Source of the DNA: a virus
Lineage: Duplodnaviria; Heunggongvirae; Uroviricota; Caudoviricetes
IMG/VR virus record: IMGVR_UViG_2534682222_000011
DNA: 13,754 bases
Direction: 5' to 3' (one strand)
The position numbers and the translations under genes are program-made. Every line of letters begins with the position of its first letter. The first letter of the stretch is position 1. This document shows positions 1 to 13,251 of this stretch, in pieces. Below the pieces are notes generated by a model. That model did not search any database. It was not told the origin of the DNA and saw only the letters and a list, made by a program, of their open reading frames with translations.

Positions 1-192
1 AGATCTACTTTAGCAAGCCAAAATGTCACGAAGTTATCTGATGACATAACTTATCCTTGATAATTATTGTATGGATAGATTATCCAGAAATTTGCGAACT
101 GAGTCGGTCATTTTTTTTTTGTGTGCGCGTGATGTAATAAAGGTTCAGGAATATACTGTCAGTTTACTGAAAAACTGGCAACAGAGGCGGTT

Positions 193-420
193 ATGAGCGA
201 GAGTTACGAGTTCTCAGCAGGTTGTTTTTTGAAGCTATCAATATCTTCAGGGTATTTCACTATCAAAATTCAGGGAGATCTCCCCGCTCGTGCAGCTAGT
301 GCCATCTTGGCAGATGATGTCGAGCAGGTTTTATCTCAACTAGACAAATGTTTTCAGCTGAGTAATAGGCAACGAGAAGGGATCGTTAAGTATCTTATGT
401 CGAAGGGGATGCAGCCTTGA
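193..420 (+). CDS. hypothetical small protein (75 aa)
   Basis: ATG-initiated ORF; its TGA stop (418-420) overlaps the ATG (420-422) of the next ORF, suggesting translational coupling. No recognisable motif. Confidence 0.4.
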   Translation: MSESYEFSAGCFLKLSISSGYFTIKIQGDLPARAASAILADDVEQVLSQLDKCFQLSNRQREGIVKYLMSKGMQP

Positions 421-878
421 TGACTTGGATCACCCAAACAGATAACTGGACAGGGATCGCGGCGTGGGCGGGTTTTGCTTTGTCCGTATTTCAATTACTA
501 AAATCCAGAACATCGCTAAGGCTTTATCTCGGATGTGATCAGCACGAGGACAGGATATACGTTTCGAACATAAGCGCACACGATGTAACGTTGAGTGCAG
601 CCGGTGTGGTAACAGCCAGTGGACGCCTTAGAATGTTATCCGACGAATATTCGGACGAGAACATGATCACACCGATGCTGCCAAAAAGATTGAAAGCACG
701 AGACGAAATGGTCTTGAACGTGCCATTCATAAATAAGGCTCATCACAACAAAGTGCATCATCGTGGCGGGGTTTATATCAAAACATCTGACGGCAAGATG
801 TTCAGTGATGTTTGTTGGATCAAACGCCAATGGTGGTGGTTACTGTCTGTAATACTACGAGACACAAAGCGATACTAA
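420..878 (+). CDS. hypothetical membrane-anchored protein (152 aa)
   Basis: N-terminal hydrophobic stretch WTGIAAWAGFALSVFQLL fits a single TM helix or signal anchor. ATG at 420 preferred over the TTG at 417 used by the ORF track. Confidence 0.45.
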   Translation: MTWITQTDNWTGIAAWAGFALSVFQLLKSRTSLRLYLGCDQHEDRIYVSNISAHDVTLSAAGVVTASGRLRMLSDEYSDENMITPMLPKRLKARDEMVLNVPFINKAHHNKVHHRGGVYIKTSDGKMFSDVCWIKRQWWWLLSVILRDTKRY

Positions 879-968
879 GTTGATTGATAGTCCGAGGTGA
901 TGTTCTGCCCAGCGTAGTTGCTGGGTGATACACCTTCAATGATTCTTGTTAGTGTGTAGGGGGGGGGC

Positions 969-1187
969 ATGTTGGATTTTAAAGCTGAGTTTGTTGGCGG
1001 CAGCCATAGCGGCGAGGTTATATCACCGATGTCCGAGGTAGAACTTAATAAACTAGGGTATAGAGTCCATTTACGTGGTGCCCCCTCTGGCGATGAAATG
1101 CCTGTACACGTTGTTGTACCTATTGAATGGTCAGCGGATGAAGCACACAGAGCCATAATGCAGCGCTGGGGTAAACGCAGACGGTAG
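969..1187 (+). CDS. hypothetical protein (72 aa)
   Basis: ORF with balanced charged composition, directly preceded by a G9 homopolymer (959-967). The competing antisense ORF 875-1198 is S/T/P-rich low-complexity and judged less likely. Confidence 0.3.
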   Translation: MLDFKAEFVGGSHSGEVISPMSEVELNKLGYRVHLRGAPSGDEMPVHVVVPIEWSADEAHRAIMQRWGKRRR

Positions 1188-1904
1188 ATGTCGCGCATTT
1201 CTCTTAAACTGGCTGCTGTGTTTGGTGCTAATTATCCATGCAAAGTGGCCTAAGCTACGTGGAAGAATGATCAGTTTCGCATTATTTGGTTCAAGGAGGG
1301 CTCCCCCACAGCCTCACTCTCTGAATGCAAAACAGCCCCACAATCCCACTGTTAAAAGTCCCAGCTTGAAAATTGCACGCTTATGGTTGCCCCTCCCTCA
1401 ACTCTATAGCTCGCCCGCGCCCCCGTGTGCATGTGCGTGCCCGCGCGTCAGGGGTCGCTGAGAAACCCTAAGATTTTGCTCATCCGAGACAAGCATTACA
1501 GGAGCGTGCTACTGAGCGAGATGCTGGCTGATTGCTGTTGCTGAATAACCGTGTGGGACGAGTGCTGCGATCATCTGCCTTTCACTGTGTATCTGTACAT
1601 CCCTCTAAAACGATCTGTATCGCTCTGTGCTGCGTTCTGTGCTTCCAATGTGTGATTCAATGCCTTTGTGATTTCGAGATCGTGGCGGTGCCGTGCTGAT
1701 CTGCTGCGTGCGCTCTACGCTGTGTTCGCTGGATGTGCCGGGGAATGCTGCTGTGGGGCGGTGCCAGTCTCTTTCGGGTATACCTGATAAAGACATAGAC
1801 ACACTGTCTCATTTGACTATCTATAAAACTCTATTGACTACACATTATTGATGTGATCTCTTATAGGTCTTGCTGTGATATTTCATTGAGACTTAGGGGG
1901 AAGC

Positions 1905-2537
1905 ATGGCACACAATGCGCTTATCTATTGCCGCGCCAGTACATCAGAGCAACACGCAGACCGGGCGCTGGGCTTGCTGCGAGAGTTCGCCAGTGATCGG
2001 GGCTGGCCTGTACGGGCGGAGTACATCGAGAACGCCAGCGGTGCGAGGCTGGCGCGTCCTGAACTAATGCGCTTGCTGGATGATGCGCAGGCCGGAGAGG
2101 TCTTGCTTGTCGAGAGCATCGACAGGCTAAGCCGCCTTACGCAAAAGGAATGGGCGACACTGAAACAGAGGATTCAGGATAAGGGACTGGTGATCGTTGC
2201 CGTTGACCTGCCAACCTCATGGCAACTACTGAACGATACGGCGTCAGAGCTTACAGAGGGCATCCTGAGAGCTGTTAACGCAATGCTGATTGATATCCTC
2301 GCTACGATGGCACGAGTGGACTACGAGACACGCAGAGCACGCCAAGCGCAGGGCATCAAGCGTGCCAAAGCCGAGGGGAAATATAACGGGAAGTCTAAGG
2401 ATGAGAGCGCCCGTGAAACTGTCCGCGCTATGCTTACCGTTGGGAATAAACCAGAGCACATCATGAAAGCTGCCGGGATAAGCCGGGCAACGTTCTACCG
2501 TATCAAACGTGAGCTGTCCGCCAGCGTTACAGAGTGA
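1905..2537 (+). CDS. serine recombinase, resolvase/invertase family (210 aa)
   Basis: N-terminal catalytic motif LIYCRASTSEQ (Y-x-R-x-S-T-x-x-Q, presumed nucleophile Ser), SG...R...GEVLLVESIDRLSR core, and C-terminal helix-turn-helix (ISRATFYRIKRE), as in small serine recombinases. Purine-rich SD-like GGGGGAAG precedes the ATG. Confidence 0.9.
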   Translation: MAHNALIYCRASTSEQHADRALGLLREFASDRGWPVRAEYIENASGARLARPELMRLLDDAQAGEVLLVESIDRLSRLTQKEWATLKQRIQDKGLVIVAVDLPTSWQLLNDTASELTEGILRAVNAMLIDILATMARVDYETRRARQAQGIKRAKAEGKYNGKSKDESARETVRAMLTVGNKPEHIMKAAGISRATFYRIKRELSASVTE

Positions 2538-2953
2538 TGACCTACAGTCTGATGAGATGCCAGCACTGGCCGTTACTGGGCTGTGGGTGATGGATGGCCT
2601 ACAGCTTTTGTATTGATATCAGATATTTATGTTATGCCTAATCTCGTAATGGTATGATTTATAATGTATTTCCGTATTACTTGCGGCTCTTGATATGAAG
2701 AGATGGCGGGGCTTTAGCCGTGCCAGACGATGAGTATCAAGATCAGATTGTGAATGTGATTTATCACTGAACAATTCGAGGGATGGGGCAGGGGAAGGGA
2801 TCAAAGGCTGTGTTGTCCAATCACTCAGCTAGATTTGAAGCAGGGCAACACCTTCGTTTTACCTTTAAAGTTGCATTTAAAATACATGTACAGAAAAGGG
2901 TTCTTCCCTTTCATCCCTTCTCCTAATCAGTGTTATCGCTTTTCGCTCTACAC

Positions 2954-3023
2954 TGGCTGCGCTTCTCGCTATGCTCCAGCCCGCTCCATCGCCTTTGGCT
3001 CATTCCCGGCCTTCGCCCGCTGT
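2954..3023 (+). repeat. scrambled tRNA-Gly 3'-half-like fragments (possible decayed att scar / left junction)
   Basis: Contains GCTCTACA, CCCGCTCCA, ATTCCC and a 12-nt exact match CCTTCGCCCGCT to the tRNA-derived att at 13224-13251, same orientation but out of order. Confidence 0.3.
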
Positions 3024-3080
3024 GATGCTCGGCCCTCCACGCAACCGTGCTTGCCAGGCAGTCAACGCGGCGGGGATAGA

Positions 3081-3113
3081 GTAGTGGTACGGTACTATAT
3101 TGGGATATGGTAC
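3081..3113 (+). repeat. GGTAC direct repeats (candidate integrase arm-type sites)
   Basis: GGTAC at 3086-3090, 3091-3095 and 3109-3113. The reverse-complement motif ([C/G]TACC) is clustered at 13152-13182 next to the integrase start. Confidence 0.25.
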
Positions 3114-3288
3114 TCACAATGCCGCTTATAACCCCTTACATCCCAGCATCCCAACAAACCTACTGAAAGTTATCAGCAAATCATTCATCAAGTCAGACAG
3201 GGCAAGGCTTACAAAGGTGTTGATTAAAAAATAATCAAATTAGAGTTTCTACTGTGGCAAAACGAACACCACTCGCTTGTGCATACGT

Positions 3289-3354
3289 AGTGACCTACAT
3301 GAAAGTCACTACTAAAGAGGGACAGAACATTCAACGTCACTGCTGACATGAAAT
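3289..3354 (+). promoter_or_regulatory. operator-like repeats upstream of helicase gene
   Basis: Dyad AGTGAC-N10-GTCACT (3289-3310) and direct repeat ACATGAAA (3297-3304 and 3347-3354), in the non-coding leader 75-140 bp upstream of the 3428 start. Confidence 0.3.
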
Positions 3355-3427
3355 TCTCTCTACGGGCAGCTCGGCGCTGCCGTCCTGCGCCTCGTTCTAA
3401 ACTCACCTTAATTTTGGAGATTTCACC

Positions 3428-5272
3428 ATGCCAACGAACCTACGCCGTTTGCTTGCGCAGGCTGCCGACGCTGACCCGCTCAATACCGCAAACGCAGATG
3501 TACAGCAAATGGTCGCTGACGGGATTGTTATTCGGCGTTCCAAGATATGCCCGATAAAGCATAAACCCGTTAAGGCGGCATACAACACGAAGACCGAAGA
3601 GTTTTATTACAATGCTGATGGCTCCGCTATGACCCTGCGGGAATGGCGAGCGCTGCATGGTGTTCAACCGAAGAAGCAAAAACAGCGCTCTGACACGGGG
3701 TTGCGGCAAGTCATCCAGCCCGGTGACGCAATTCATTGCCGACGCGCTGAGATAGAAATGTGGCTCAACAAGAAGCCTGCTCGGTATGCTGACCCGCTGC
3801 CGCCTGATTTTCCCGGTGTTCGCGTAGATGATGCCGCATTGAAACCGCGCGAGCACGCCGTTTCGGCATCGACAACCGGGCAGAATGCTTTTCTCAAAGC
3901 CTGCCGCGAGTTCCTGATTTGTGATGAGAAGACTATACACCGCATCAACAGGGGCATGAATAAACTGGAAGCGATGCGCAATTCAGATTTCAAACGCTAC
4001 GGGGACTCAGCGGAGTTTCGTCAATTGTGGTGTGGAGAGTCGAAACCTACCGAGGATAAATTTAACAGTACAAATCATCATTGTGACCCAAACGGCTTGG
4101 CAGTGTCGCCGTCTGTGCCGTCACTGAATACAGCCTCTTATGAGTTTCGCCCGCTGGTTCGCTGTGACCGAAACGCACGCGTTAGCCTGTTGCCACCCGA
4201 TGGGCTGGAGTGGAGGCCGGGGCAGTTGTCTGTTGCTGATGCGATCTTCTCCCGTGGTAGTGATGTGCTGGCCGTTCTGCCTACGGGTTATGGCAAGACC
4301 GCCGCCTTCGCTTATCCATTGATTTATGAGTCCCGCGCTGGCGTTGGCCTGTCTGTAATCGTGGTTCCCACTAATACCCTAAAGCGCCAGATTCTCCGCC
4401 AGTTGCGGGATGCTGGCGTTCACGCTGTGGCATTCGGTGACAAGTTGCCGAGGCACCGCAACGCTCAACAACTCGCGGGGCTGGCTGCCGGGGCGTTCCG
4501 TGTTGCTGTCGTTTCACCTGAGCATCTTGTTCTGTCGAGTCAGGTCTTCGCGGCGCTGATGGCTTACGGCGTTGATCGTTTTATCATCGACGAAGCGCAC
4601 ACGGTTAAAGACTGGGATTTCCGACCCGCTTACGAGGCCATGCAGCACTCGCTACAACATGCCTTTCTTTCGGCTCAACGCTGCGTATTTACGGCTACGC
4701 TGCTACGCGAAAATGAGCGCAGTTTAATGGCGTCGCTTGGCTGCCGTGGTGATTACGTAACATTCCGTGCTGATGTTGCTCGCGAAAATATCCAGTTGAC
4801 GACAGTCAGACAGTGCCGCGAACGTTTCCGAGCGGCTATTGGTCTGGTCGAGGCTCTGCCGAAAGAAGAGAAGACGCTCATTCTCGTCAATGACCTTAAG
4901 ACGTTGCGGGCGTACCTGAAACTCTTAGGCGACCGGGCGCGCCCATATCACTCGAAGACGATGCACTTGAGTAACGAAGAACGCCACGCAAACGCTGAGT
5001 GGTTTGCCACTACGCCGGGCGCAATTCTGATTGCTACTAAAGCCTTCGGGCTGGGGGCTGATGTGCCAGACATTCGCAACGTCATCGTTACATATATTCC
5101 TGATGACCTGCCTGACCTCATTCAGATGATTGGACGAGCCGGGCGCGATGGTCAACCTGCCCGCGCGTTTCTGCTGTGGTCATCGCTGGCGCTGGATGCT
5201 GCGCCTGATGAGCTTGCTTACTTCTACCGCCCTGAAAACTGCAACTGGCAGTACATCGCTAAATACCTCTGA
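3428..5272 (+). CDS. SF2 DEAH-box helicase, RecQ-like core, with ~270-aa N-terminal extension (614 aa)
   Basis: Helicase motifs in order: LPTGYGKT (I/Walker A), VVPTNTL (Ia), IIDEAH (II), FTATL (III), LIATKAFGLGADV (V), QMIGRAGRDGQ (VI, RecQ-type). N-terminal part has an excisionase/AlpA-like winged-helix signature (TLREWRALHGV ... GDAIHCRRAEIEMWL). GGAG RBS 10 nt upstream of the ATG. Confidence 0.9.
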   Translation: MPTNLRRLLAQAADADPLNTANADVQQMVADGIVIRRSKICPIKHKPVKAAYNTKTEEFYYNADGSAMTLREWRALHGVQPKKQKQRSDTGLRQVIQPGDAIHCRRAEIEMWLNKKPARYADPLPPDFPGVRVDDAALKPREHAVSASTTGQNAFLKACREFLICDEKTIHRINRGMNKLEAMRNSDFKRYGDSAEFRQLWCGESKPTEDKFNSTNHHCDPNGLAVSPSVPSLNTASYEFRPLVRCDRNARVSLLPPDGLEWRPGQLSVADAIFSRGSDVLAVLPTGYGKTAAFAYPLIYESRAGVGLSVIVVPTNTLKRQILRQLRDAGVHAVAFGDKLPRHRNAQQLAGLAAGAFRVAVVSPEHLVLSSQVFAALMAYGVDRFIIDEAHTVKDWDFRPAYEAMQHSLQHAFLSAQRCVFTATLLRENERSLMASLGCRGDYVTFRADVARENIQLTTVRQCRERFRAAIGLVEALPKEEKTLILVNDLKTLRAYLKLLGDRARPYHSKTMHLSNEERHANAEWFATTPGAILIATKAFGLGADVPDIRNVIVTYIPDDLPDLIQMIGRAGRDGQPARAFLLWSSLALDAAPDELAYFYRPENCNWQYIAKYL

Positions 5273-5310
5273 GTCGAAAGGCTCCCCCTCATTCTCTGGA
5301 GTTAATCCAT

Positions 5311-5748
5311 ATGCCTGTTACCGAACATGCGCAGCGTCGTGCTACGCGTGCGGATGCGCTCGTCACCGCACAACTTGCCTTCGCCCTGAACGGATATTCC
5401 TTCGATGGGTTAGCTGAGCGCCACCGCCAGACTCTTAATCGTGCGGCCATCTTGCGCCAAGCTGGTACGCCGCTACAGCGGTATTGCCTGCTCAATCACT
5501 GTGAGCCTTGGGAATGTCTGGCCGCTGTGCTGAATAGATTCCGACGCCGGGAGGATGGCGCTCGTCTTTGGCCGACCTATCGCATGGCTCGTGAGGTCTT
5601 TAATGGGACTGTTCACCCTGCCAACAAGACGCGCGACGAGATATTTCAATCTGTGCAGCGTCGCCTCTTTTTACCAAAACCAGTACACGCCGAAGTAATC
5701 CAGTACCTGCGCGTAATGGGGCTGACAGGAGTTAATCCGCATGACTAA
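5311..5748 (+). CDS. hypothetical protein (145 aa)
   Basis: ORF with GGAG RBS about 10 nt upstream; first in a chain of overlapping, translationally coupled ORFs. Confidence 0.6.
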   Translation: MPVTEHAQRRATRADALVTAQLAFALNGYSFDGLAERHRQTLNRAAILRQAGTPLQRYCLLNHCEPWECLAAVLNRFRRREDGARLWPTYRMAREVFNGTVHPANKTRDEIFQSVQRRLFLPKPVHAEVIQYLRVMGLTGVNPHD

Positions 5749-5947
5749 AACCGAGTTTGAAAATGAAACGTGGCGAATGAAAGGCTTGCTTCTTGGGGCG
5801 CTAATCCGCCGCCTTGAGGAAGACAAGGCTGGTGAGTCGCGCATGGCCGCAGCGGAGTTATCCAGTGCGGTCAACTTCCTTAAGGCCAATGCCGTAGAAG
5901 CGCCGGACACGTCATTTAACCGTGTATTTGAGGATGACGAGCAATGA
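5741..5947 (+). CDS. hypothetical protein (68 aa)
   Basis: Start overlaps the end of the upstream ORF by 8 nt; GGAG RBS with the same spacing as the upstream gene; acidic C-terminus. Confidence 0.5.
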   Translation: MTKTEFENETWRMKGLLLGALIRRLEEDKAGESRMAAAELSSAVNFLKANAVEAPDTSFNRVFEDDEQ

Positions 5948-6120
5948 CACCCGCAGAGTTTAGAGCATGGTTTGCAACCCTGCCGCCGAACTATCAGAGC
6001 GCAGCACGAGCCATGTATGAAAGCGCCCGCAAGACGGGAACACACACCGCTTCCAGCCTGCTACTCATTCGCACGCTGATTGAAGATCAAATCAATTTCG
6101 ATGGAGACTTTACCTTATGA
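5944..6120 (+). CDS. hypothetical protein (58 aa), not in supplied ORF track
   Basis: Hand-translated: ATG at 5944 overlaps the upstream TGA (ATGA); uninterrupted to TGA at 6118-6120, which overlaps the next ATG at 6117 (ATGA). Fits the coupled-operon pattern. Confidence 0.4.
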   Translation: MTPAEFRAWFATLPPNYQSAARAMYESARKTGTHTASSLLLIRTLIEDQINFDGDFTL

Positions 6121-6680
6121 CAGTTCTGAGCCTGACCGATATCCAGCGCATCAATACCCTCGTTAAGCGCGACCTTCGCAATGTGGAAGAGGTAGTCGCT
6201 GCAACCGGATTTGACCCGGAGGACGTTGACGCGGTGCTGCGCGGCGTTTATGTAGCCGACCTTGCCAACCAGTGGAGGGATGAAGCCGCTATTACGCTGG
6301 AGGAATACAACGCCATCCGTAAGCGCTGGAAACCGGGGCGCGGCCACTGGGACACTGCACATGCCATTGCACGCGATTTTCTAATTCGGCCTGAAACTGT
6401 GCTGGCTATCGTCCATTCCCGCTTTAGCAACGCCCACACCCACCCGATGCCGAAAGCAGTTAAAGCAAAGCCTGAGAAACCGCAGACGATGCGCCGCCTG
6501 TTGAGCGCCGACCTCGATCAGATGCACAAGCTGGAGCGCTTCGGCTGGAAACAAACCGAGATCGCTGGGGAGCTTGGGATCTCTGCTGAGGCTGTTGCTC
6601 ATGTCCTGCGCCTGATGCGTAGCAAGTGGTCTTATCCAGATATTTTGGAAGACGTTAACACGCGATTCGGGGCTAAGTGA
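6117..6680 (+). CDS. hypothetical DNA-binding protein with C-terminal HTH (187 aa)
   Basis: C-terminal segment WKQTEIAGELGISAEAVAHVLRLM resembles a helix-turn-helix; start overlaps upstream stop. Confidence 0.65.
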   Translation: MTVLSLTDIQRINTLVKRDLRNVEEVVAATGFDPEDVDAVLRGVYVADLANQWRDEAAITLEEYNAIRKRWKPGRGHWDTAHAIARDFLIRPETVLAIVHSRFSNAHTHPMPKAVKAKPEKPQTMRRLLSADLDQMHKLERFGWKQTEIAGELGISAEAVAHVLRLMRSKWSYPDILEDVNTRFGAK

Positions 6681-6913
6681 TGGCAGAGAACGAACCGCTG
6701 CACCCTGCCGTTAACCCTGATCTCTATGTGAACCTTGACGAACAGCGCGAGGGATACGCCCCGTTTGAATCACGCGGCTGGGATGTGCTGACACAGAACC
6801 TGTCCGGGGAAGGGCGAACTGATCCCGGCCAAGCACCAAACCAGAATCCAAGGCAGCGACCGCGTGGCTCCGTTGGCGAGCGACGTTGGTTGCGTCGTCA
6901 TGGCCTTATCTAA
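6680..6913 (+). CDS. hypothetical protein (77 aa)
   Basis: ATG at 6680 overlaps the upstream TGA (TGATG); the ORF track's GTG at 6677 is less likely. Basic, Pro/Arg-rich C-terminus. Confidence 0.45.
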   Translation: MAENEPLHPAVNPDLYVNLDEQREGYAPFESRGWDVLTQNLSGEGRTDPGQAPNQNPRQRPRGSVGERRWLRRHGLI

Positions 6914-6927
6914 CTGAGGATTATTTC

Positions 6928-7167
6928 ATGAGCACCATTATTTTAATGGAGCCACGCCGCGCGGCTGATTGCGGGCAACAACTGAAATTCATTGCCGAAG
7001 CCTTGAATCTTCGTCAAATCGATTTGGCTCATGTGTACCAGATCGACAGACAAGATCTCGGCAAAGCGTACCACGGACAGAAGATGATTCCTGCCCGATG
7101 CGTACACGCGCACATGCTTTTACTTGAACTGGCACATCGCCGAGTTACATCACAAGAGGTTGCATAA
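6928..7167 (+). CDS. hypothetical protein (79 aa), possible small HTH regulator
   Basis: ATG at 6928 with GAGGA RBS 7 nt upstream, preferred over the TTG at 6886. Segment LNLRQIDLAHVYQIDRQDLGK is HTH-like. Confidence 0.45.
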   Translation: MSTIILMEPRRAADCGQQLKFIAEALNLRQIDLAHVYQIDRQDLGKAYHGQKMIPARCVHAHMLLLELAHRRVTSQEVA

Positions 7168-7169
7168 TC

Positions 7170-7856
7170 ATGGCTGACCAGAATGTTAATCCGTACCTTT
7201 CGGGCGCTGATACTGCGCCGCAGCAATCGCCGTACATGGCCGCACCTGTAGGCGCTGACAACGGCGCTAGCAGATTCGACCAGACAACACCTGATGCTGA
7301 TTTCCTGAAAACGCAGCCAGCGAACATTAATCAAAGCTGGAACGAAAGTAACTTTGCCAACCAGCAAGACCAGCAGATTGATGTTGCTGCGCAAGTGGGC
7401 GACACGCTGCAATTACAGGATGGCACTACTGTTGAGTTGACTCCTGAACTTCATGGGCTGATGGGGCAGTTTCACCAGTCTGTCGAAAGCCAGCTAGGGC
7501 AGGGGACAGTTGACGCGATGTTGCAGTACGCTGGCACGCTCGACGCCGGGACGCAATCAACCCTTGAACGGATGGTTATGTCTGGCGACCCTGCGCAGAT
7601 GCAGCGGGCGGTTCATTATCTGCAAGAGCGTATGGTCGCAGGCACTGCGACTGGTTATGTCCCATCACAGGGGAACCCATACGGCCAGCCTGCCTCGCAA
7701 CCTGTTGGTATGTCTCATGCTGAGTTTATTGCAGCGTATGATCAGCTTTCGCAGTGGGCGCAGCAATCAGGGTATGGCCCCGGCCATCGCCAGTACGACG
7801 ATCAATACCGCGCTCTGGTTGCGCAGCGCTCCGCTGGCAAACGCGCTGGCCGTTAA
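7170..7856 (+). CDS. hypothetical Gln/Ala-rich acidic protein (228 aa)
   Basis: AAGAGG RBS 10 nt upstream of ATG. Q-rich, acidic, low-complexity composition of the kind seen in scaffold or decoration-type proteins, but no diagnostic motif. Confidence 0.65.
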   Translation: MADQNVNPYLSGADTAPQQSPYMAAPVGADNGASRFDQTTPDADFLKTQPANINQSWNESNFANQQDQQIDVAAQVGDTLQLQDGTTVELTPELHGLMGQFHQSVESQLGQGTVDAMLQYAGTLDAGTQSTLERMVMSGDPAQMQRAVHYLQERMVAGTATGYVPSQGNPYGQPASQPVGMSHAEFIAAYDQLSQWAQQSGYGPGHRQYDDQYRALVAQRSAGKRAGR

Positions 7857-7916
7857 GCAATCGCCTGTCCTGTCTTCCCCACGTCTTAACCTTACGTTTT
7901 AGAGCCTGAATCGCGT

Positions 7917-7936
7917 TGTACATCGCCAGATGTACA
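7917..7936. promoter_or_regulatory. TGTACA-N8-TGTACA palindromic repeat pair (candidate activator/operator site)
   Basis: TGTACATCGCCAGATGTACA lies in the 160-bp intergenic gap between the 228-aa and 115-aa genes. Confidence 0.3.
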
Positions 7937-8015
7937 TTCGTATACCTGCACCTGTAAAACGCGAAATTACCTCTCAAACACCACACATAAACCCACTTTG
8001 CATTGAGATCTGACA

Positions 8016-8363
8016 ATGACCTTACTGACACCTGAAAACGTGGCAGCGGCTAGGGCTGCCCGTAGCGCGAGGATTGAACACTGGAAAGCCAACGCCAGCC
8101 AGCTTAAGCAGGACTTTGCTGACGAAGCGCACTGGCGGCGGCTCGCCTCACGCTTCGGCGTGCGTATGCCCTCGGCGTATGTTCCCGGCTCCGAGCTGCG
8201 ATTGCTGCGCCGGGCGGCCAAACGCGCGGGCATCTCTGGTGCTGATATGCGCGATGCTTTTGGTGGGGGCGTTGCGCACCTGCACGAGCTTAATCCCCAT
8301 TGGCCTGCCTTCGCGCTTATCGGCCTGATTCTTGAGATCGCGGCTGAAAAAGCTGCTGCCTGA
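8016..8363 (+). CDS. hypothetical protein (115 aa)
   Basis: ORF after an intergenic gap; Ala/Arg-rich; weak RBS. No recognisable motif. Confidence 0.55.
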   Translation: MTLLTPENVAAARAARSARIEHWKANASQLKQDFADEAHWRRLASRFGVRMPSAYVPGSELRLLRRAAKRAGISGADMRDAFGGGVAHLHELNPHWPAFALIGLILEIAAEKAAA

Positions 8364-8431
8364 TTCATCCCATTCTCTTTTCCCCTTTTCCATAAATCGC
8401 GCTGGCTAACGCTGGCGCGGGAGCTATTTCT

Positions 8432-9427
8432 ATGACTGACAATGTTTATACCCCTGACCAATTCCGCCCGCACTGGGGCGGTGTAGATGCTGACAACGAC
8501 ATTCACATTGAAGCGTATGACCGGGACGTTCAGACCCGCCTTGAGGCAAAGAGCGTGTTTCTCGCCGAGGGGCTGAGCACATACAAGCCGCTGAAAAACA
8601 GTAATCAGTATCGTGTAGACCGCCTGAGCGGAGATCTGGAGGTGAAGGGCAGAACCGCAGGGCAATCGCTGGAGCCTACCGCCGTTAAGTCGGACAAGCT
8701 GATTATCTCTGTGGATACGCTGAGCTATATCCGCATCCCGATTGACTATCAAGACGACTGGACAGCGCCCACCTTTCGCGCAGAGCTGAGCCGCAACATG
8801 GGGACAGCCCATGCAAAGTTCTACGACGAAGCGCACACTATCCAGCTAATCAAAGCGACTGACTTTGTACCGCCGCCTACGTTGCAACCAACGTTTAACC
8901 CGCTGACGGATAATGTTGTCTCGCTCGACCTGACAACGGGGAGCGAAGAGGATGCGGCTAACGAACTGGTTCACGCTATTAAAGCTGCTGTTAATCGATT
9001 CCTAACTGAAAAAGATATTCCGGTGGCGGAGCTGTGCCTTCTCATCGACCCAGCTTGGTTCAGCATCCTGATGGAACATAAGAAGTTGATGAACGTCCGT
9101 TACAGCCGGGATAGTGGCAATGATTACGCATGGCGTCGCGTTGGCTATGTCGCTGGGGTGCGAGTTATTGAGCTGAACAGTTACCCGCAGGAAGCCATTA
9201 CCGCGCATGAACTGGGCGCTGATTATGATGTGACCGCAGGGGAAGCGCTGACACGGGCGACGCTGTTCCGGCCTGCGTCTGTACTTGTGACAGTCGAAGC
9301 GCAGAGCGTTATCAATCGCCAGTGGGATGATGAACGCGAAATGACAATGGTGATGGACTCATATCGCCTGTTCAATGTTGGGCTGCGCCGCCCTGACTGC
9401 GTTATAAATTTCCGACAAGCTGCATAA
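8432..9427 (+). CDS. hypothetical protein (331 aa), possibly structural/morphogenetic
   Basis: GGGAG RBS 8 nt upstream of ATG. Largest protein of the late-region-like block; no catalytic motif seen; role inferred from context only. Confidence 0.7.
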   Translation: MTDNVYTPDQFRPHWGGVDADNDIHIEAYDRDVQTRLEAKSVFLAEGLSTYKPLKNSNQYRVDRLSGDLEVKGRTAGQSLEPTAVKSDKLIISVDTLSYIRIPIDYQDDWTAPTFRAELSRNMGTAHAKFYDEAHTIQLIKATDFVPPPTLQPTFNPLTDNVVSLDLTTGSEEDAANELVHAIKAAVNRFLTEKDIPVAELCLLIDPAWFSILMEHKKLMNVRYSRDSGNDYAWRRVGYVAGVRVIELNSYPQEAITAHELGADYDVTAGEALTRATLFRPASVLVTVEAQSVINRQWDDEREMTMVMDSYRLFNVGLRRPDCVINFRQAA

Positions 9428-9443
9428 CAAAAGGGGCCGAGCC

Positions 9444-9971
9444 ATGAATATTGATGCTTATGCCCCGGAGCTGTTGCGCTCTTTGTTTCGGTACGATGCG
9501 AAGACTGGCCGCCTGTTCCATGCAGTAGACCGGATCGGAGCCAACAAGCGGATTTACGCTAAAGCCGGGGAACTGGCCGACACGGTAACGGACAGCGCCG
9601 GATATAGGCGCGTATCTGTCCGCATCAATGGCAAATCTCATGCGCTATACGCCCACCGTGTCGCCTTCATCATTGCTAATGACGGTATCCCTGCCGGGAT
9701 GCAAATCGACCATATCAACGCGGTACGCGATGACAACCGCCTTATCAATCTCCGCACGGTTACGCCACAAGAGAACCAGCACAATTACCGCAAAGCCAAG
9801 GGTTATAGCCACCATGCCTGCTCTGGCAGATGGGAGGCTTACATTCGCGTTGGTGGTGTTCGCCATCACCTCGGCTTATTCACTACCGAAGCGGCGGCGC
9901 GTGCTGCGTACCTGAAAGCTAAAGCCAGATACCATCCGTCAACGCCAGCCGATTTATTGCAGGCTGCCTAA
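9444..9971 (+). CDS. HNH endonuclease with C-terminal AP2-type DNA-binding domain (175 aa)
   Basis: HNH_3-like motif (YRRVSVRINGKSHALYAHRVAFIIANDGIPAGMQIDHINAVRDDNRLINLRTVTPQENQHN) followed by AP2-like GRWEAYIRVGGVRHHLGLFTTEAAARAAY. AAGGGG RBS upstream. Confidence 0.85.
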   Translation: MNIDAYAPELLRSLFRYDAKTGRLFHAVDRIGANKRIYAKAGELADTVTDSAGYRRVSVRINGKSHALYAHRVAFIIANDGIPAGMQIDHINAVRDDNRLINLRTVTPQENQHNYRKAKGYSHHACSGRWEAYIRVGGVRHHLGLFTTEAAARAAYLKAKARYHPSTPADLLQAA

Positions 9972-9989
9972 TCCTCGGAGGTTCCATTA

Positions 9990-10415
9990 ATGGCTGATGA
10001 AAAGCCGATTAGAGCGCTGGCAGATGATGACCCGCGCCGCCAGCGGTACGCTGAACTGTTGGCGCAGGCTGGCCGCATGACTATTCCACGGCTGCATCCG
10101 GGCGATGCTAACAGTGTTATGAGTCAGCTTGCGACAATGCTCGGAGCACCTGTCCCGATAGTAGGTGCTATGACTGAGCACGCCGCTGCATGGCGTGCCT
10201 GTCTTCTGGAGCAAGGGCTTGGTGATCTTCTGGATGGCTTGAGTAAGCAGGTGCTGACCATCTTCTTTCTGCTCTGCTGGAGAGACAGCGCCTTGCGATT
10301 GGCGGGTAAGCAAAAGGAACGGTTTGCAGCGGCCAGCGAGGGTTTGACCATTGAGCAATACCGGGCAATGCACCCGGCTTACAGAGAGGATAAAGAAAAT
10401 GATAACCACGATTAA
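9990..10415 (+). CDS. hypothetical protein (141 aa); position suggests a small-terminase-like or packaging-redirection protein
   Basis: Strong GGAGG RBS 8 nt upstream. Functional guess rests only on its place directly downstream of the HNH endonuclease. Confidence 0.6.
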   Translation: MADEKPIRALADDDPRRQRYAELLAQAGRMTIPRLHPGDANSVMSQLATMLGAPVPIVGAMTEHAAAWRACLLEQGLGDLLDGLSKQVLTIFFLLCWRDSALRLAGKQKERFAAASEGLTIEQYRAMHPAYREDKENDNHD

Positions 10416-10698
10416 ATTAAGGTGGCGGTACATCGAGCCGCCACCAATGACTGGCGCACTCGCTGACCTGAAACAGTGGGTAATGGATACCGGAGAGCCT
10501 GAGCTTGAAGCTAAATTTCGTAAGCTGCTGGGGCTGATGCGCCGCAATGGTATCAGTGACGAACGTGTTAATGCGATGGCCGCCGAGCTTTATGCTCTGG
10601 TATGCCAACGCCAGCGCGAAGAATACGAAGCCTGCAAACGGGCTGCATCTGACAGTGGAGGCTTTGAATCATGGTTACACGGACAGACCAACTACTAA
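10399..10698 (+). CDS. hypothetical protein (99 aa)
   Basis: ATG at 10399 preceded by GAGAGGA RBS and overlapping the upstream stop region; preferred over the in-frame ATG at 10351, which lies 65 nt inside the upstream gene. Confidence 0.55.
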   Translation: MITTIKLRWRYIEPPPMTGALADLKQWVMDTGEPELEAKFRKLLGLMRRNGISDERVNAMAAELYALVCQRQREEYEACKRAASDSGGFESWLHGQTNY

Positions 10699-11108
10699 GA
10701 AAAGCGATGCGAGGCTATCTGGAATATCTCGGCAACATGCCGCTAGCGGAACGCATTAAAAATTCTGCTGCGTTCGATGATGTGTATCACTTCCTGTTGA
10801 ATGGTTCAGGACGGCTGGAGTTGCGCCGCGCTGATGTGGCCGCTGTCCGTGTCTTCCTGTGGAATTATCAATACCGACGCTGCGCGGTGACAGCTAAGCC
10901 GCTACGCCTCGCGTCTGCTGTATTGGATCACTGTCACCGAACTGGACGTGTGCGCGCTGTGGTTCATCGTTCGGCCAATGCAGCGGAAGGTGGTTATTAT
11001 GTGGGAAATTTGTGCGGACTCTCACGAAGTAGCATGTTAAGCATGCTACCTGCCTACCGCCGACAATACAAGGGGTTGGGCGTTATTTATCCAAGACAAC
11101 ATGCGTGA
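10671..11108 (+). CDS. hypothetical protein (145 aa)
   Basis: GGAGG RBS 9 nt upstream of ATG; overlaps upstream ORF by 28 nt. Confidence 0.55.
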   Translation: MVTRTDQLLRKAMRGYLEYLGNMPLAERIKNSAAFDDVYHFLLNGSGRLELRRADVAAVRVFLWNYQYRRCAVTAKPLRLASAVLDHCHRTGRVRAVVHRSANAAEGGYYVGNLCGLSRSSMLSMLPAYRRQYKGLGVIYPRQHA

Positions 11109-11309: not shown

Positions 11310-11519
11310 ATGAACTTTGATATGCGTACAAACCAAAATTGTGCATCGTTTTTTAACCCAGCAACCAAGGCGTTTGTCGTCGTTGATTCGTTTGACAACT
11401 ACGAATTCGATGTGCGTGCTGGTACTTTATCACGCACTGAATTTGTAGGCACCATCACAGCTTCAAACGATGAAGAGTTGAACAAGAAATTAGCTGAGAT
11501 CACGGCTGCACACATATGA
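11310..11519 (+). CDS. hypothetical small protein (69 aa), cassette gene A
   Basis: Very strong RBS (AGGAGG, 5-nt spacer); AT-rich codon usage unlike the upstream block; stop overlaps next start (ATGA). Confidence 0.6.
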   Translation: MNFDMRTNQNCASFFNPATKAFVVVDSFDNYEFDVRAGTLSRTEFVGTITASNDEELNKKLAEITAAHI

Positions 11520-11890
11520 TAACTCAACAGCAGATTGATGATTTAGTTGCAGATATTAACGATATCTTGGAAGAAGATAGAGCCAAGCTAAAGATGTCAT
11601 TTCATTTTGCTGTTGATAGACTTAATGATCCGCGTAATAAACCTCCAATCACGTTAGCTGAGTTGAGAGTGATTTTTACAAATTTCATTGGACAACACTT
11701 GCAGACAATTCTAGGCAAAGATGAGGGATTTTCCTTCACTATCAAGTGTCAGAAATCTGGTATTGCTATACCGTGCGCTATAGAGCATGAACTTGATATC
11801 GGTGCAAAGTGGGTAGTTCAGCAAGTGATCACCATCATGCGGAATCCGCAGTTTAACGCGTATCATGGTGATGTCATCTTTGATGTTTAA
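11516..11890 (+). CDS. hypothetical protein (124 aa), cassette gene B
   Basis: Translationally coupled to gene A; followed by a canonical intrinsic terminator. Confidence 0.65.
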   Translation: MITQQQIDDLVADINDILEEDRAKLKMSFHFAVDRLNDPRNKPPITLAELRVIFTNFIGQHLQTILGKDEGFSFTIKCQKSGIAIPCAIEHELDIGAKWVVQQVITIMRNPQFNAYHGDVIFDV

Positions 11891-11893
11891 AAG

Positions 11894-11916
11894 AAAGGCG
11901 CTATAGCGCCTTTTTT
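11894..11916. terminator. rho-independent terminator, plausibly bidirectional
   Basis: Hairpin AAAGGCGC-TATA-GCGCCTTT followed by a T6 run on the plus strand; the complement reads hairpin plus TTTCTTTT. Abuts the integrase stop codon. Confidence 0.7.
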
Positions 11917-13135
11917 ATAAACACGGATAACTGACCAACTCCACATACTCCCATAGTTCTTTCATCCCTGCTCCCTTGCTATATGTCCTGAAAGCTTCCG
12001 TTTTAGCTTTTTGTTCGGTATGCCCGGTTATTGCCCCTATGCGCTGTTCTGGTACTCCTGCTCTGTCTAAGCAAGTAATAAAGTGACCACGCAGGGAGTG
12101 GAAGCATTGGCGATCTGTAGCCGCTGACAGCACGCGACGGCGTAGCCGTGTAAATGCCTGCGAGTACCACGGGCCACGCTTACCGTCGGCACGTTTAATC
12201 TTGTTCGATTGGGGGAGCAGGTATTCACCGTTGTTCTGCGCAAGGTATTTATCAACGATGCTGATTAACAGCGAGTGTATGGGGACGTGCCTTACACCCG
12301 CTTTAGTTTTAGATTTGCTGACGTAGAAGCAGCGTACCCCTTCAACTTTGATAATCTCAACTCGTTTGATGCTGGCGATTTCGTCGAGACGCATACCGGA
12401 ATACAAACCGATTATGATTACGTCTCGTATCTCGCTACCTGCCTCTTTTATTAATGCCTGTAGCTGGTGTAGTTCAAAAGGTTGATAACTTTCGTTCGTC
12501 TGGCGGGCTTCCAGATTGTGGCCGTGAAAGGGATTATCAGGGGCGATATTGTCATATTTACGCCGGGCGAAGTCATACAGCGTCCCTAAGCAGGTTAACC
12601 AGTTTTGCAGCGTCTGGCGGGAAAACTTATCTTGGTTCGCTTCCAGAAAGTCAGAGACGAGCCGCCGCCCGATTCCATTTATTGTAATGGTTGGGCGTTT
12701 TATTGAATTAGTAAATGCCGATACAGCGCGAACTGATTTACTCAGCGTGGAATAAGAGCGCCGATCTTTGTATTGCTCTGCATATTCTTTACTGACATCT
12801 GTCAATTTTGGTGATGCTGGTTTTCCCCGCTCTGCTGGAATAGTTGCGGGTGTGGTAATGCTGCTGGATACCCCCGCCAGCAAGTGAAGATCTGTTACAG
12901 CGGAATGAATCCGGGTAATGGGGTTATCCGGTTTCATCATGAGCTGTAGCTTACGGAACTCTAATAAATATTGGTCACGGAAAATGCGAGCTTGCATGAT
13001 GTCCCGTGTGCCTGTCGATTTCTTGAGCGAGCGCCGCCCGTTCCAGAGGTGGCGCATGTAGACCGGAATATAGATTTGAAAGATGAATATCCCATCTTTG
13101 TTTGCATAAAGATAAGAAGTCTTCTTGATTGGCAT
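11915..13135 (-). CDS. int: tyrosine site-specific integrase (406 aa)
   Basis: C-terminal catalytic region with HSLRGHF (box II-like) and a downstream Tyr (RTYSKG). ATG at 13135 with AAGG RBS preferred over the TTG at 13165 used by the ORF track. Adjacent to the tRNA-derived att. Confidence 0.9.
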   Translation of the reverse strand: MPIKKTSYLYANKDGIFIFQIYIPVYMRHLWNGRRSLKKSTGTRDIMQARIFRDQYLLEFRKLQLMMKPDNPITRIHSAVTDLHLLAGVSSSITTPATIPAERGKPASPKLTDVSKEYAEQYKDRRSYSTLSKSVRAVSAFTNSIKRPTITINGIGRRLVSDFLEANQDKFSRQTLQNWLTCLGTLYDFARRKYDNIAPDNPFHGHNLEARQTNESYQPFELHQLQALIKEAGSEIRDVIIIGLYSGMRLDEIASIKRVEIIKVEGVRCFYVSKSKTKAGVRHVPIHSLLISIVDKYLAQNNGEYLLPQSNKIKRADGKRGPWYSQAFTRLRRRVLSAATDRQCFHSLRGHFITCLDRAGVPEQRIGAITGHTEQKAKTEAFRTYSKGAGMKELWEYVELVSYPCL

Positions 13136-13151
13136 GGTAATTACCTTGTAA

Positions 13152-13182
13152 TCTACCGCTACCAACTACCGGGATAAGTACC
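13152..13182 (-). repeat. clustered (C/G)TACC(G/A) repeats between int start and att (candidate arm-type sites)
   Basis: CTACCG, CTACCA, CTACCG and GTACCG within 31 bp; mirror the GGTAC repeats at 3086-3113. Confidence 0.3.
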
Positions 13183-13223: not shown

Positions 13224-13251
13224 GAGGGTTCGATTCCCTTCGCCCGCTCCA
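13224..13251 (+). repeat. att site: 3' terminal 28 nt of a tRNA-Gly gene (T-arm, acceptor 3' strand, CCA)
   Basis: GAGGGTTCGATTCCCTTCGCCCGCTCCA has a T-stem/loop (GAGGG-TTCGATT-CCCTT), 7-nt acceptor strand CGCCCGC, discriminator T and CCA. It matches the 3' end of E. coli glyU as I recall it. No 5' half is present upstream. Confidence 0.7.

Follow-up and report, generated by a model that had tools for sequence, protein, structure and literature searches.

We analysed a window of 13,754 nucleotides from the virus record IMGVR_UViG_2534682222_000011 (Caudoviricetes), the window being the whole stretch of DNA at its full length, and in particular two overlapping open reading frames (ORFs), ORF1 (193-420) and ORF2 (420-878), in its left part. 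From this analysis we give about an even chance to the reading that ORF1 and ORF2 form a two-gene anti-phage cargo operon in the integrase-distal variable slot of what appears to be a phage satellite. As a kind, candidate defence cassettes in satellite hotspots are well known; the two proteins belong to no described family.

ORF1 (plus strand; ATG at 193, TGA at 418-420) encodes a soluble protein of 75 amino acids with an isoelectric point (pI) of 6.1, and a Shine-Dalgarno sequence, GAGG (184-187), lies 5 nt upstream of its ATG. ORF2 (plus strand; ATG at 420, TAA at 876-878) encodes a protein of 152 amino acids with a pI of 9.5, or of 153 amino acids when read from the TTG at 417. The genes meet in the junction TTGATG (417-422, plus strand), where TTG (417-419), the stop codon TGA (418-420) and ATG (420-422) overlap, and two coupled ORF2 starts, TTG 417 and ATG 420, are possible. 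In relatives of ORF2 the homologous start is TTG or GTG and overlaps the ORF1 stop as TTGA or GTGA. Since the relatives begin at that position, the true start of ORF2 may be TTG 417. The NTGA overlap was kept in E. coli, Raoultella (GTGA), Citrobacter, Serratia and Brenneria (TTGA), and because the stop/start overlap is conserved, the two proteins are probably made together. An earlier, sequence-only reading of this DNA had described a coupled pair of a 75-residue soluble and a 152-residue protein with a TGATG overlap, which proved to be a real coupled bicistron by its NTGA junction in 15 loci and by dN/dS. The same reading had called the pair AT-richer than the main element, and this was borne out by G+C contents of 0.44 for ORF1 and 0.455 for ORF2 compared to 0.54 for positions 1900-11100. 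The T10 homopolymer that it had noted is present at 111-120, within the divergent intergenic region (48-192) upstream of ORF1. A promoter scan gave a single weak promoter-like match, at 41-70.

Both genes are real and under purifying selection. Proteins identical to those of the window were found on 635 (ORF1) and 638 (ORF2) public contigs, labelled 'hypothetical protein' everywhere. Close homologues of ORF2 formed 28 clusters with 65-93% identity, all from Enterobacterales; a profile search with ORF1 recovered 22 clusters, mostly of 75 amino acids, and every cluster with a named source was from the same order. The identity of ORF1 across genera was 37-56%. Pairwise dN/dS values (Nei-Gojobori) were 0.06-0.13 for ORF2 and 0.30-0.43 for ORF1, and amino-acid change was 2-5 times greater in ORF1 than in ORF2. 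Fifteen loci with a full-length ORF1 were fetched, from E. coli, Raoultella, Citrobacter, Serratia, Brenneria and one virus-collection contig, and in all 15 the next gene was an ORF2 homologue of 151-153 amino acids reached through an NTGA junction. The N-terminal pattern MSE.YEF..GCF..VS..S.YF of ORF1 was shared by Raoultella, Citrobacter, Serratia, Brenneria and a second E. coli island type. A first, word-indexed search had returned only three near-identical matches to ORF1, as if it were a spurious ORF; this was overturned by the ORFs of 75 amino acids in other genera, and the word-index limit of that search explained the orphan-like result.

The sequence-only reading had recognised no motif in either protein, and the database searches agreed with it. 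ORF1, ORF2 and the downstream gene ORF3 gave no match in Pfam, NCBIfam, PHROGs or PADLOC; in PADLOC-DB v2.0.0 the three proteins had no match at E <= 1, nor did 29 members of the ORF2 family. Searches of PDB sequences with profiles of ORF1, ORF2 and a neighbouring 259-residue protein, and with a 182-residue protein encoded upstream of an ORF2 homologue in E. coli E2348/69, gave nothing significant. Megablast of window positions 1-1300 against plasmids and phages gave no match.

The island, about 14.4 kb long and bounded by attachment (att) sites, holds the pair near its integrase-distal end and not at its edge, since tRNA-Gly sequence bounds the element on both sides. The window corresponds at 99.9% identity to E. 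coli NZ_LR536431.1, where it adjoins the tRNA-Gly gene glyU. The full tRNA-Gly is located about 1.2 kb to the left of the window start, and attR (13224-13251, plus strand), a 28-bp direct repeat of the glyU 3' end, lies just outside the tyrosine integrase gene (11915-13165, minus strand; phrog_1 at E 9e-36, annotated as integrase in NZ_LR536431.1). The attR sequence is an exact 28-bp match to the tRNA 3' end at positions 13809-13836 of locus record L001. The pair had been placed at the left edge by the sequence-only reading; this did not hold, as the element extends some 1.2 kb further left to the tRNA and a gene for a 259-residue protein is cut by the window. Further genes of the island encode a serine recombinase (1905-2537), a DEAD-box helicase (3428-5272), a scaffold-like protein (7170-7856), a major head protein (phrog_267; 8432-9427), an HNH endonuclease (9444-9971) and an Endonuclease-VII-like protein (10671-11108). 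No terminase or portal gene was seen in the island, which therefore looks like a tRNA-integrating, capsid-encoding phage satellite. The same layout was found in Raoultella, bounded by tRNA-Thr and a 33-bp repeat.

The position of the pair within this island is part of the argument for defence. Sister islands with the same recombinase-helicase-capsid-HNH-integrase core have different genes between the tRNA and a 44-bp motif at 1359-1402, which BLASTN of window positions 1-3500 against sister loci showed to be the right border of a variable cargo slot. This motif was the only sequence to the left of the recombinase common to all examined sister satellites (L002, L011, L032 and L033), and it could be a recombination or regulatory site. 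In E. coli A16 the slot holds a type II methyltransferase and an XcyI-family endonuclease (PADLOC, 477 and 681 bits). In strain WP8-S17-ESBL-12 it holds a DUF3800/PDC-M04A gene, PDC-M04A being a candidate defence system, and in E2348/69 it holds the 182-residue protein, an ORF2 homologue (about 93% protein identity) and a 253-residue membrane protein. In Ewingella an ORF2 homologue directly follows a RAZR/PD-T7-4 gene (PADLOC E 2e-94, full length); the island there is arranged differently and belongs to a wider family, not to the same-core sister satellites. RAZR, a HEPN RNase encoded by one gene, acts by abortive infection and is protective when cloned by itself (PMC13017515). As the slots of sister islands hold varying content that includes defence genes, the slot is a hotspot of variable cargo in which defence systems demonstrably occur, and similar variable defence hotspots have been described for P4, P2 and for the phage-inducible chromosomal islands (PICIs) (PMC9122126, PMC13586616). 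For the positional class of satellite defence-hotspot cargo, both an att-bounded variable slot and defence systems in sister slots were found. The abortive-infection or defence module suggested by the sequence-only reading fits this context, with type II restriction-modification and PDC-M04A in the slots of sister islands and RAZR/PD-T7-4 beside an ORF2 homologue; a match to a defence profile did not emerge.

ORF2 was modelled with AlphaFold2 on an alignment of 29 sequences (pLDDT 75, pTM 0.61) as a helix at residues 3-28, a beta-sandwich at 33-129 and a second helix at 133-151. A model from a shallow alignment of 22 sequences had reached a pLDDT of 52 and was discarded; remote relatives were then added. 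The hydrophobic helix comprises residues 10-27 (nt 447-500, plus strand), the immunoglobulin (Ig)-like sandwich nt 516-806 (plus strand) and the Arg/Trp-rich C-terminal helix (KRQWWWLLSVILRDTKR) nt 816-872 (plus strand). Residues 10-27 are marginally hydrophobic, with a Kyte-Doolittle (KD19) maximum of 1.15 and a summed Hessa-scale dG of about +2.7 kcal/mol; several remote relatives have a clear membrane-spanning segment at the same position, with KD19 values of 2.1-2.8. The one N-terminal hydrophobic helix of the sequence-only reading is thus present, if marginal, and the Arg/Trp-rich helix had been missed. Most of the 29 family members have an acidic or neutral N-tail and a charge of +1 to +4 over the 10 residues that follow the helix. 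Under the positive-inside rule, such a pattern suggests a single-pass inner-membrane protein with its N-terminus outside, its C-terminus inside and the sandwich in the cytoplasm. The model contained no enzyme fold and no toxin fold, and ORF2 is non-enzymatic and probably membrane-anchored. A homology and structure check, as proposed with the sequence-only reading, gave no sequence homology to known families and a modelled architecture of helix, Ig-like sandwich and Arg/Trp helix.

A fold search of BFVD with ORF2 gave weak matches only, to uncharacterised phage proteins. The best structural matches were archaeal type IV pilins/archaellins and FlaF/FlaG, at TM-scores below 0.5. In contrast to these, the N-terminus of ORF2, MTWITQTDNWTG, lacks both a class III signal peptide and a prepilin-peptidase site, and a G/A-F/M-x-x-x-E motif was not found in MTWITQTDNWTGIAAW. 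Unlike the pilins and archaellins, ORF2 closes with an additional Arg/Trp-rich helix and belongs to a bacterial mobile element. The likeness is one of fold only.

If the pair is anti-phage cargo, it would protect the lysogen, and hence the satellite, against other phages, with ORF2 as the acting part at the inner membrane. ORF2 might perturb the membrane after infection through its Arg/Trp-rich helix, causing abortive infection, or it might block entry of phage DNA as in superinfection exclusion; we somewhat favour abortive infection. The predicted cytoplasmic sandwich would be a binding platform, and the Arg/Trp-rich helix would lie on or in the membrane. ORF1, which is acidic and would be cytoplasmic, would bind the basic ORF2 and adjust or gate its action. 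A sensor, specificity subunit or brake is proposed for ORF1 because faster evolution is expected of such a subunit. ORF2 would not depend strictly on ORF1.

ORF1 always has ORF2 downstream, whereas ORF2 is not always preceded by ORF1. BLASTN identity to E. coli E2348/69 (92% at the DNA level) spans exactly 417-874, and identity to Kosakonia (95.5%) spans 417-1402, that is ORF2, a hairpin, ORF3 and the 44-bp motif. As identity begins at 417 in both, the left recombination breakpoint is the start of ORF2. These ORF2 homologues (97% protein identity in Kosakonia) lack ORF1 and have an unrelated gene for a 182-residue protein upstream; in E2348/69 (NC_011601.1, locus record L002) that gene lies at 11371-11919 and the ORF2 homologue at about 11998-12459. 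The intact ORF2 homologue of this reference enteropathogenic E. coli strain has no RefSeq annotation. Furthermore, in GCA_045581885 an IS5 element is inserted in ORF1 (window positions 296-299) and ORF2 is intact. The sequence-only reading had proposed to check whether the pair travels between islands; it does move among non-identical islands, but not always as a unit.

These observations bear on a type II-like toxin-antitoxin addiction module, in which ORF2 would be a membrane toxin, ORF1 a labile co-translated antitoxin and the island would be stabilised. A small acidic gene placed first and overlapping a larger basic gene by NTGA, an upstream gene that evolves 2-5 times faster than the downstream one and a mobile-element location would all suit such a module, and gene order, 4-base overlap, charges and the faster-evolving first gene are shared with type II toxin-antitoxin operons. 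In contrast to those operons, ORF2 occurs without ORF1, at about 93-97% protein identity and with a breakpoint at its own start, no ORF1-like neighbour stands beside remote ORF2 relatives, and ORF1 has no helix-turn-helix, ribbon-helix-helix, AbrB or Phd-type domain in Pfam or NCBIfam, such as an antitoxin would use to bind DNA for autoregulation. The toxin fold expected on this view is not seen in ORF2 either. The IS5 insertion is weak evidence against the module, as it is probably polar. We consider an addiction module unlikely, and a toxin/immunity pair in the strict sense, toxin/immunity being one of the two kinds named by the sequence-only reading, is unlikely because ORF2 is found without ORF1.

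A function in the life cycle of the satellite, for example a membrane protein that manipulates lysis, entry or induction of a helper phage for the benefit of the satellite, would agree with the finding that in 9 of 9 Enterobacterales loci with a called gene table the island with ORF2 also has a Phage_cap_E-type capsid gene. However, satellites with a close capsid (L032 and L033) hold other slot cargo. The island capsid gene, at >=80% nucleotide identity, was found in 59 of 5426 complete E. coli genomes and ORF2 in 14, and the two lists share only 5 genomes. By this small overlap and the other cargo in L032 and L033, ORF2 as a core satellite gene was ruled out. A life-cycle role, which we regard as quite improbable, is also opposed by ORF2 relatives in other settings: a P2-like prophage, the neighbourhood of an AbiTii gene and a conjugative plasmid of Pseudomonas.

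The wider ORF2 family is very small. A profile search of 1.84 billion representative proteins gave only 25 proteins at E <= 0.001, mostly of 140-180 amino acids and with the same architecture. Conserved positions were N50, S52, H54, G62, G68, R94, G125 and R136, together with R-T/N-S after the helix and a C-terminal RRxWWW. Within the same 90%-identity cluster as ORF2, members from Enterobacter hormaechei and Dickeya have 156 and 178 amino acids, which suggests a different N-terminus in these two. A locus search of genome contigs returned only 3 species. Four named remote relatives were checked, from Azotobacter, Pseudomonas (two) and Paraburkholderia; the remainder were metagenomic. Among the remote relatives, one adjoins the gpQ portal gene of a P2-like prophage, the side on which the P2 old/tin hotspot lies (PMC9122126). 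Another starts 45 bp after a gene with an AbiTii domain (PADLOC E 5e-43) in a prophage-like region. The Paraburkholderia relative stands in a mobile-element-like run of small genes beside a DUF5677 gene, and one is carried on pHelA, a conjugative plasmid of P. syringae, again among consecutive small genes. Where the region upstream of a remote relative was read or had its genes called, no ORF1-like partner was found, and a search for three remote relatives in viral contigs found nothing.

Because the upstream neighbour varies, ORF2 might instead be a shared membrane module for whichever gene precedes it, the common anchor or effector of a combinatorial two-component system. Four different co-directional upstream neighbours were seen at short gaps, namely ORF1, the 182-residue protein, RAZR-like HEPN and AbiTii, and the breakpoint falls exactly at the start of ORF2. 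The 182-residue protein contains the string RNITVH, which fits the Rx4-6H motif of HEPN proteins (motif definition in PMC3710099). On the other side, RAZR defends when cloned alone, the overlap with ORF2 occurs only for ORF1 while the other gaps are about 45-80 bp, the 182-residue protein had no Pfam, PADLOC or PDB match, and the contexts sampled were few. Kinship of the 182-residue protein with RAZR/DUF4145 was rejected by BLASTP, and the 253-residue membrane protein of E2348/69 was rejected as an ORF2 relative at an hhalign probability below 1%. We hold a shared module of this kind to be quite improbable as well.

In its widest form, this view would make the ORF2 family a novel class of anti-phage effectors that have an Ig fold, span the membrane once and work with interchangeable upstream partners, a modular 'sensor-swap' arrangement. 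ORF2 would have been recombined exactly at its start codon behind ORF1, the 182-residue Rx4H protein, RAZR-like HEPN and AbiTii; satellites, prophages and plasmids would carry the effector, which would act through the membrane-active Arg/Trp-rich helix. We regard this as a rather improbable extension. The least probable account is that the cargo has an unrelated adaptive function or none, for example as a host-physiology membrane protein or a decaying remnant; this would explain the absence of functional homology of any kind and the very small family but not the strong purifying selection on ORF2 across genera, the maintained overlap or the presence of the pair on hundreds of contigs.

Several points weigh against anti-phage cargo. 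No validated defence protein homologous to ORF1 or ORF2 was found with PADLOC, Pfam, NCBIfam, PHROGs or PDB, and tblastn of ORF2 against phage records gave no match, so that no cultured-phage record has the ORF2 family. The hotspot argument is one of guilt by association, and such slots also hold non-defence cargo. The contexts on the conjugative plasmid and in Paraburkholderia are not specifically defensive. Membrane insertion of this ORF2 is not certain because its helix is marginal, and the two indications of a putative ORF1-ORF2 interaction are gene coupling and opposite charge.

If the pair does defend against phages, the defence catalogue would gain an unannotated protein family for which Pfam, PADLOC, PHROGs and NCBIfam have no model, although copies lie on hundreds of contigs from E. 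coli and other Enterobacterales, the reference pathogen strain E2348/69 among them. In that case the tRNA-proximal slot of these capsid-encoding satellites would be a defence hotspot worth mining, like those of P4, P2 and PICIs, and ORF2, with a membrane helix, an Ig-like domain, an Arg/Trp helix and no enzyme, would represent an uncommon design for an effector or exclusion protein. Without a defensive role, the two genes are an ordinary hypothetical cargo pair.

Among known systems, the two-gene cassettes of P4, P2 and PICIs with a transmembrane (TM) partner are likewise small operons in a variable satellite slot, likewise include a short membrane protein without an enzyme domain, and islands of the same core carry other defence systems. 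Examples from the hotspots are HAD-hydrolase + TM and reverse transcriptase (RT)-nitrilase + TM (Rousset et al. 2022, PMC9122126). Our pair differs in having no enzymatic partner and no sequence or profile match in PADLOC, and its host satellite is not of the P4 type. A PICI 'HEPN + TM' system was reportedly described by Fillol-Salom et al. in 2022, and it would be relevant mainly to the E2348/69 arrangement of the 182-residue RNITVH protein with ORF2.

RexA/RexB of phage lambda, an abortive-infection system, is likewise a two-gene cargo of a soluble and an inner-membrane protein. For systems of this type, with a cytoplasmic sensor and a membrane effector, the presumed mode of action is loss of membrane potential; the membrane helices of RexB number four, and RexA has 279 amino acids. 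In contrast, ORF2 has one helix and an Ig-like domain, its partner has 75 amino acids, and no homology to RexA or RexB was detected. The superinfection-exclusion proteins of prophages, with lactococcal Sie2009, T4 Imm and HK97 gp15 as examples, are small, non-enzymatic and membrane-anchored and are encoded at the ends of integrated elements, often by a single gene, and the remote relatives of ORF2 are likewise single genes. ORF2 differs from the exclusion proteins in that no homology was found in PHROGs, they are not known to have a coupled small partner, and its domain is predicted to be cytoplasmic. Compared to AbiT of Lactococcus, ORF2 and its family had no AbiTi match and the window has no AbiTii gene. 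TM effectors such as Cap15 also occur in cyclic oligonucleotide-based antiphage signalling systems (CBASS) and Pycsar, where the operon also encodes a cyclase that produces the signal; the slot neighbours here (the 259-residue gene, ORF1 and ORF3) gave no match to a cyclase or other domain.

The gene divergent from ORF1 runs off the left end of the window, which includes only its 5' end (1-47, minus strand). Reverse-complemented, positions 1-47 give MSSDNFVTFWLAKVD, the N-terminus of WP_023063078.1. This protein of 259 amino acids matched phrog_19541 at E 2e-76 and had no Pfam match and no PADLOC match at E <= 0.1; tblastn against phages gave none, despite the PHROG match. It is 72-74% identical in Raoultella and Citrobacter, where it is again divergent from ORF1, whereas Serratia and Brenneria have other genes in its place. 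It is possible that this gene is a third member of the cassette.

Downstream of ORF2, the stem-loop noted by the sequence-only reading is present at 908-925 (plus strand), between ORF2 and ORF3, with the arms CCCAGC/GCTGGG and a 6-nt loop, and extends into a longer stem. It was ruled out as a canonical intrinsic terminator: it has no U-tail, was not called by a terminator scan and had a folding z-score of -1.35, no better than shuffled sequence. The hairpin is retained in Kosakonia together with ORF2 and ORF3. ORF3 (969-1187, plus strand; 72 amino acids) is co-inherited with ORF2 in Kosakonia arachidis (95.5% DNA identity) and is absent after ORF2 in E2348/69. It was rejected as a relative of ORF1 at an hhalign probability below 1%. 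A G9 run (959-967) just 5' of the ORF3 ATG is G6, G8 or G9 in relatives, and near-identical islands carry a run of T9, T10, T11 or T12 in the divergent promoter region. These length differences could be slipped-strand variation of expression or assembly error.

Related islands occur at leuX, thrW and glyU in several genera. In NZ_LR536431.1, a stretch of 549 bp (2492-3040) that contains the 3' end of the recombinase gene is missing, and an IS1 replaces the attR side beyond 13124. The DEAD-box helicase of the island matched the PADLOC model PDLC02858, 'DpdF', over the full model with 888 bits. No dpd gene was found among the approximately 18 window ORFs scanned against profile libraries, only five of which were scanned against PADLOC. 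PDLC02858 may have been built from this satellite helicase, and false Dpd calls could result. In a Serratia marcescens island (locus record L009, 14721-16576), the satellite core contains a DUF4062 gene and, after it, a DUF2971 gene. The latter matched the PADLOC candidate PDC-S31 at E 7e-43, and the two genes are possibly a second defence locus in these islands.

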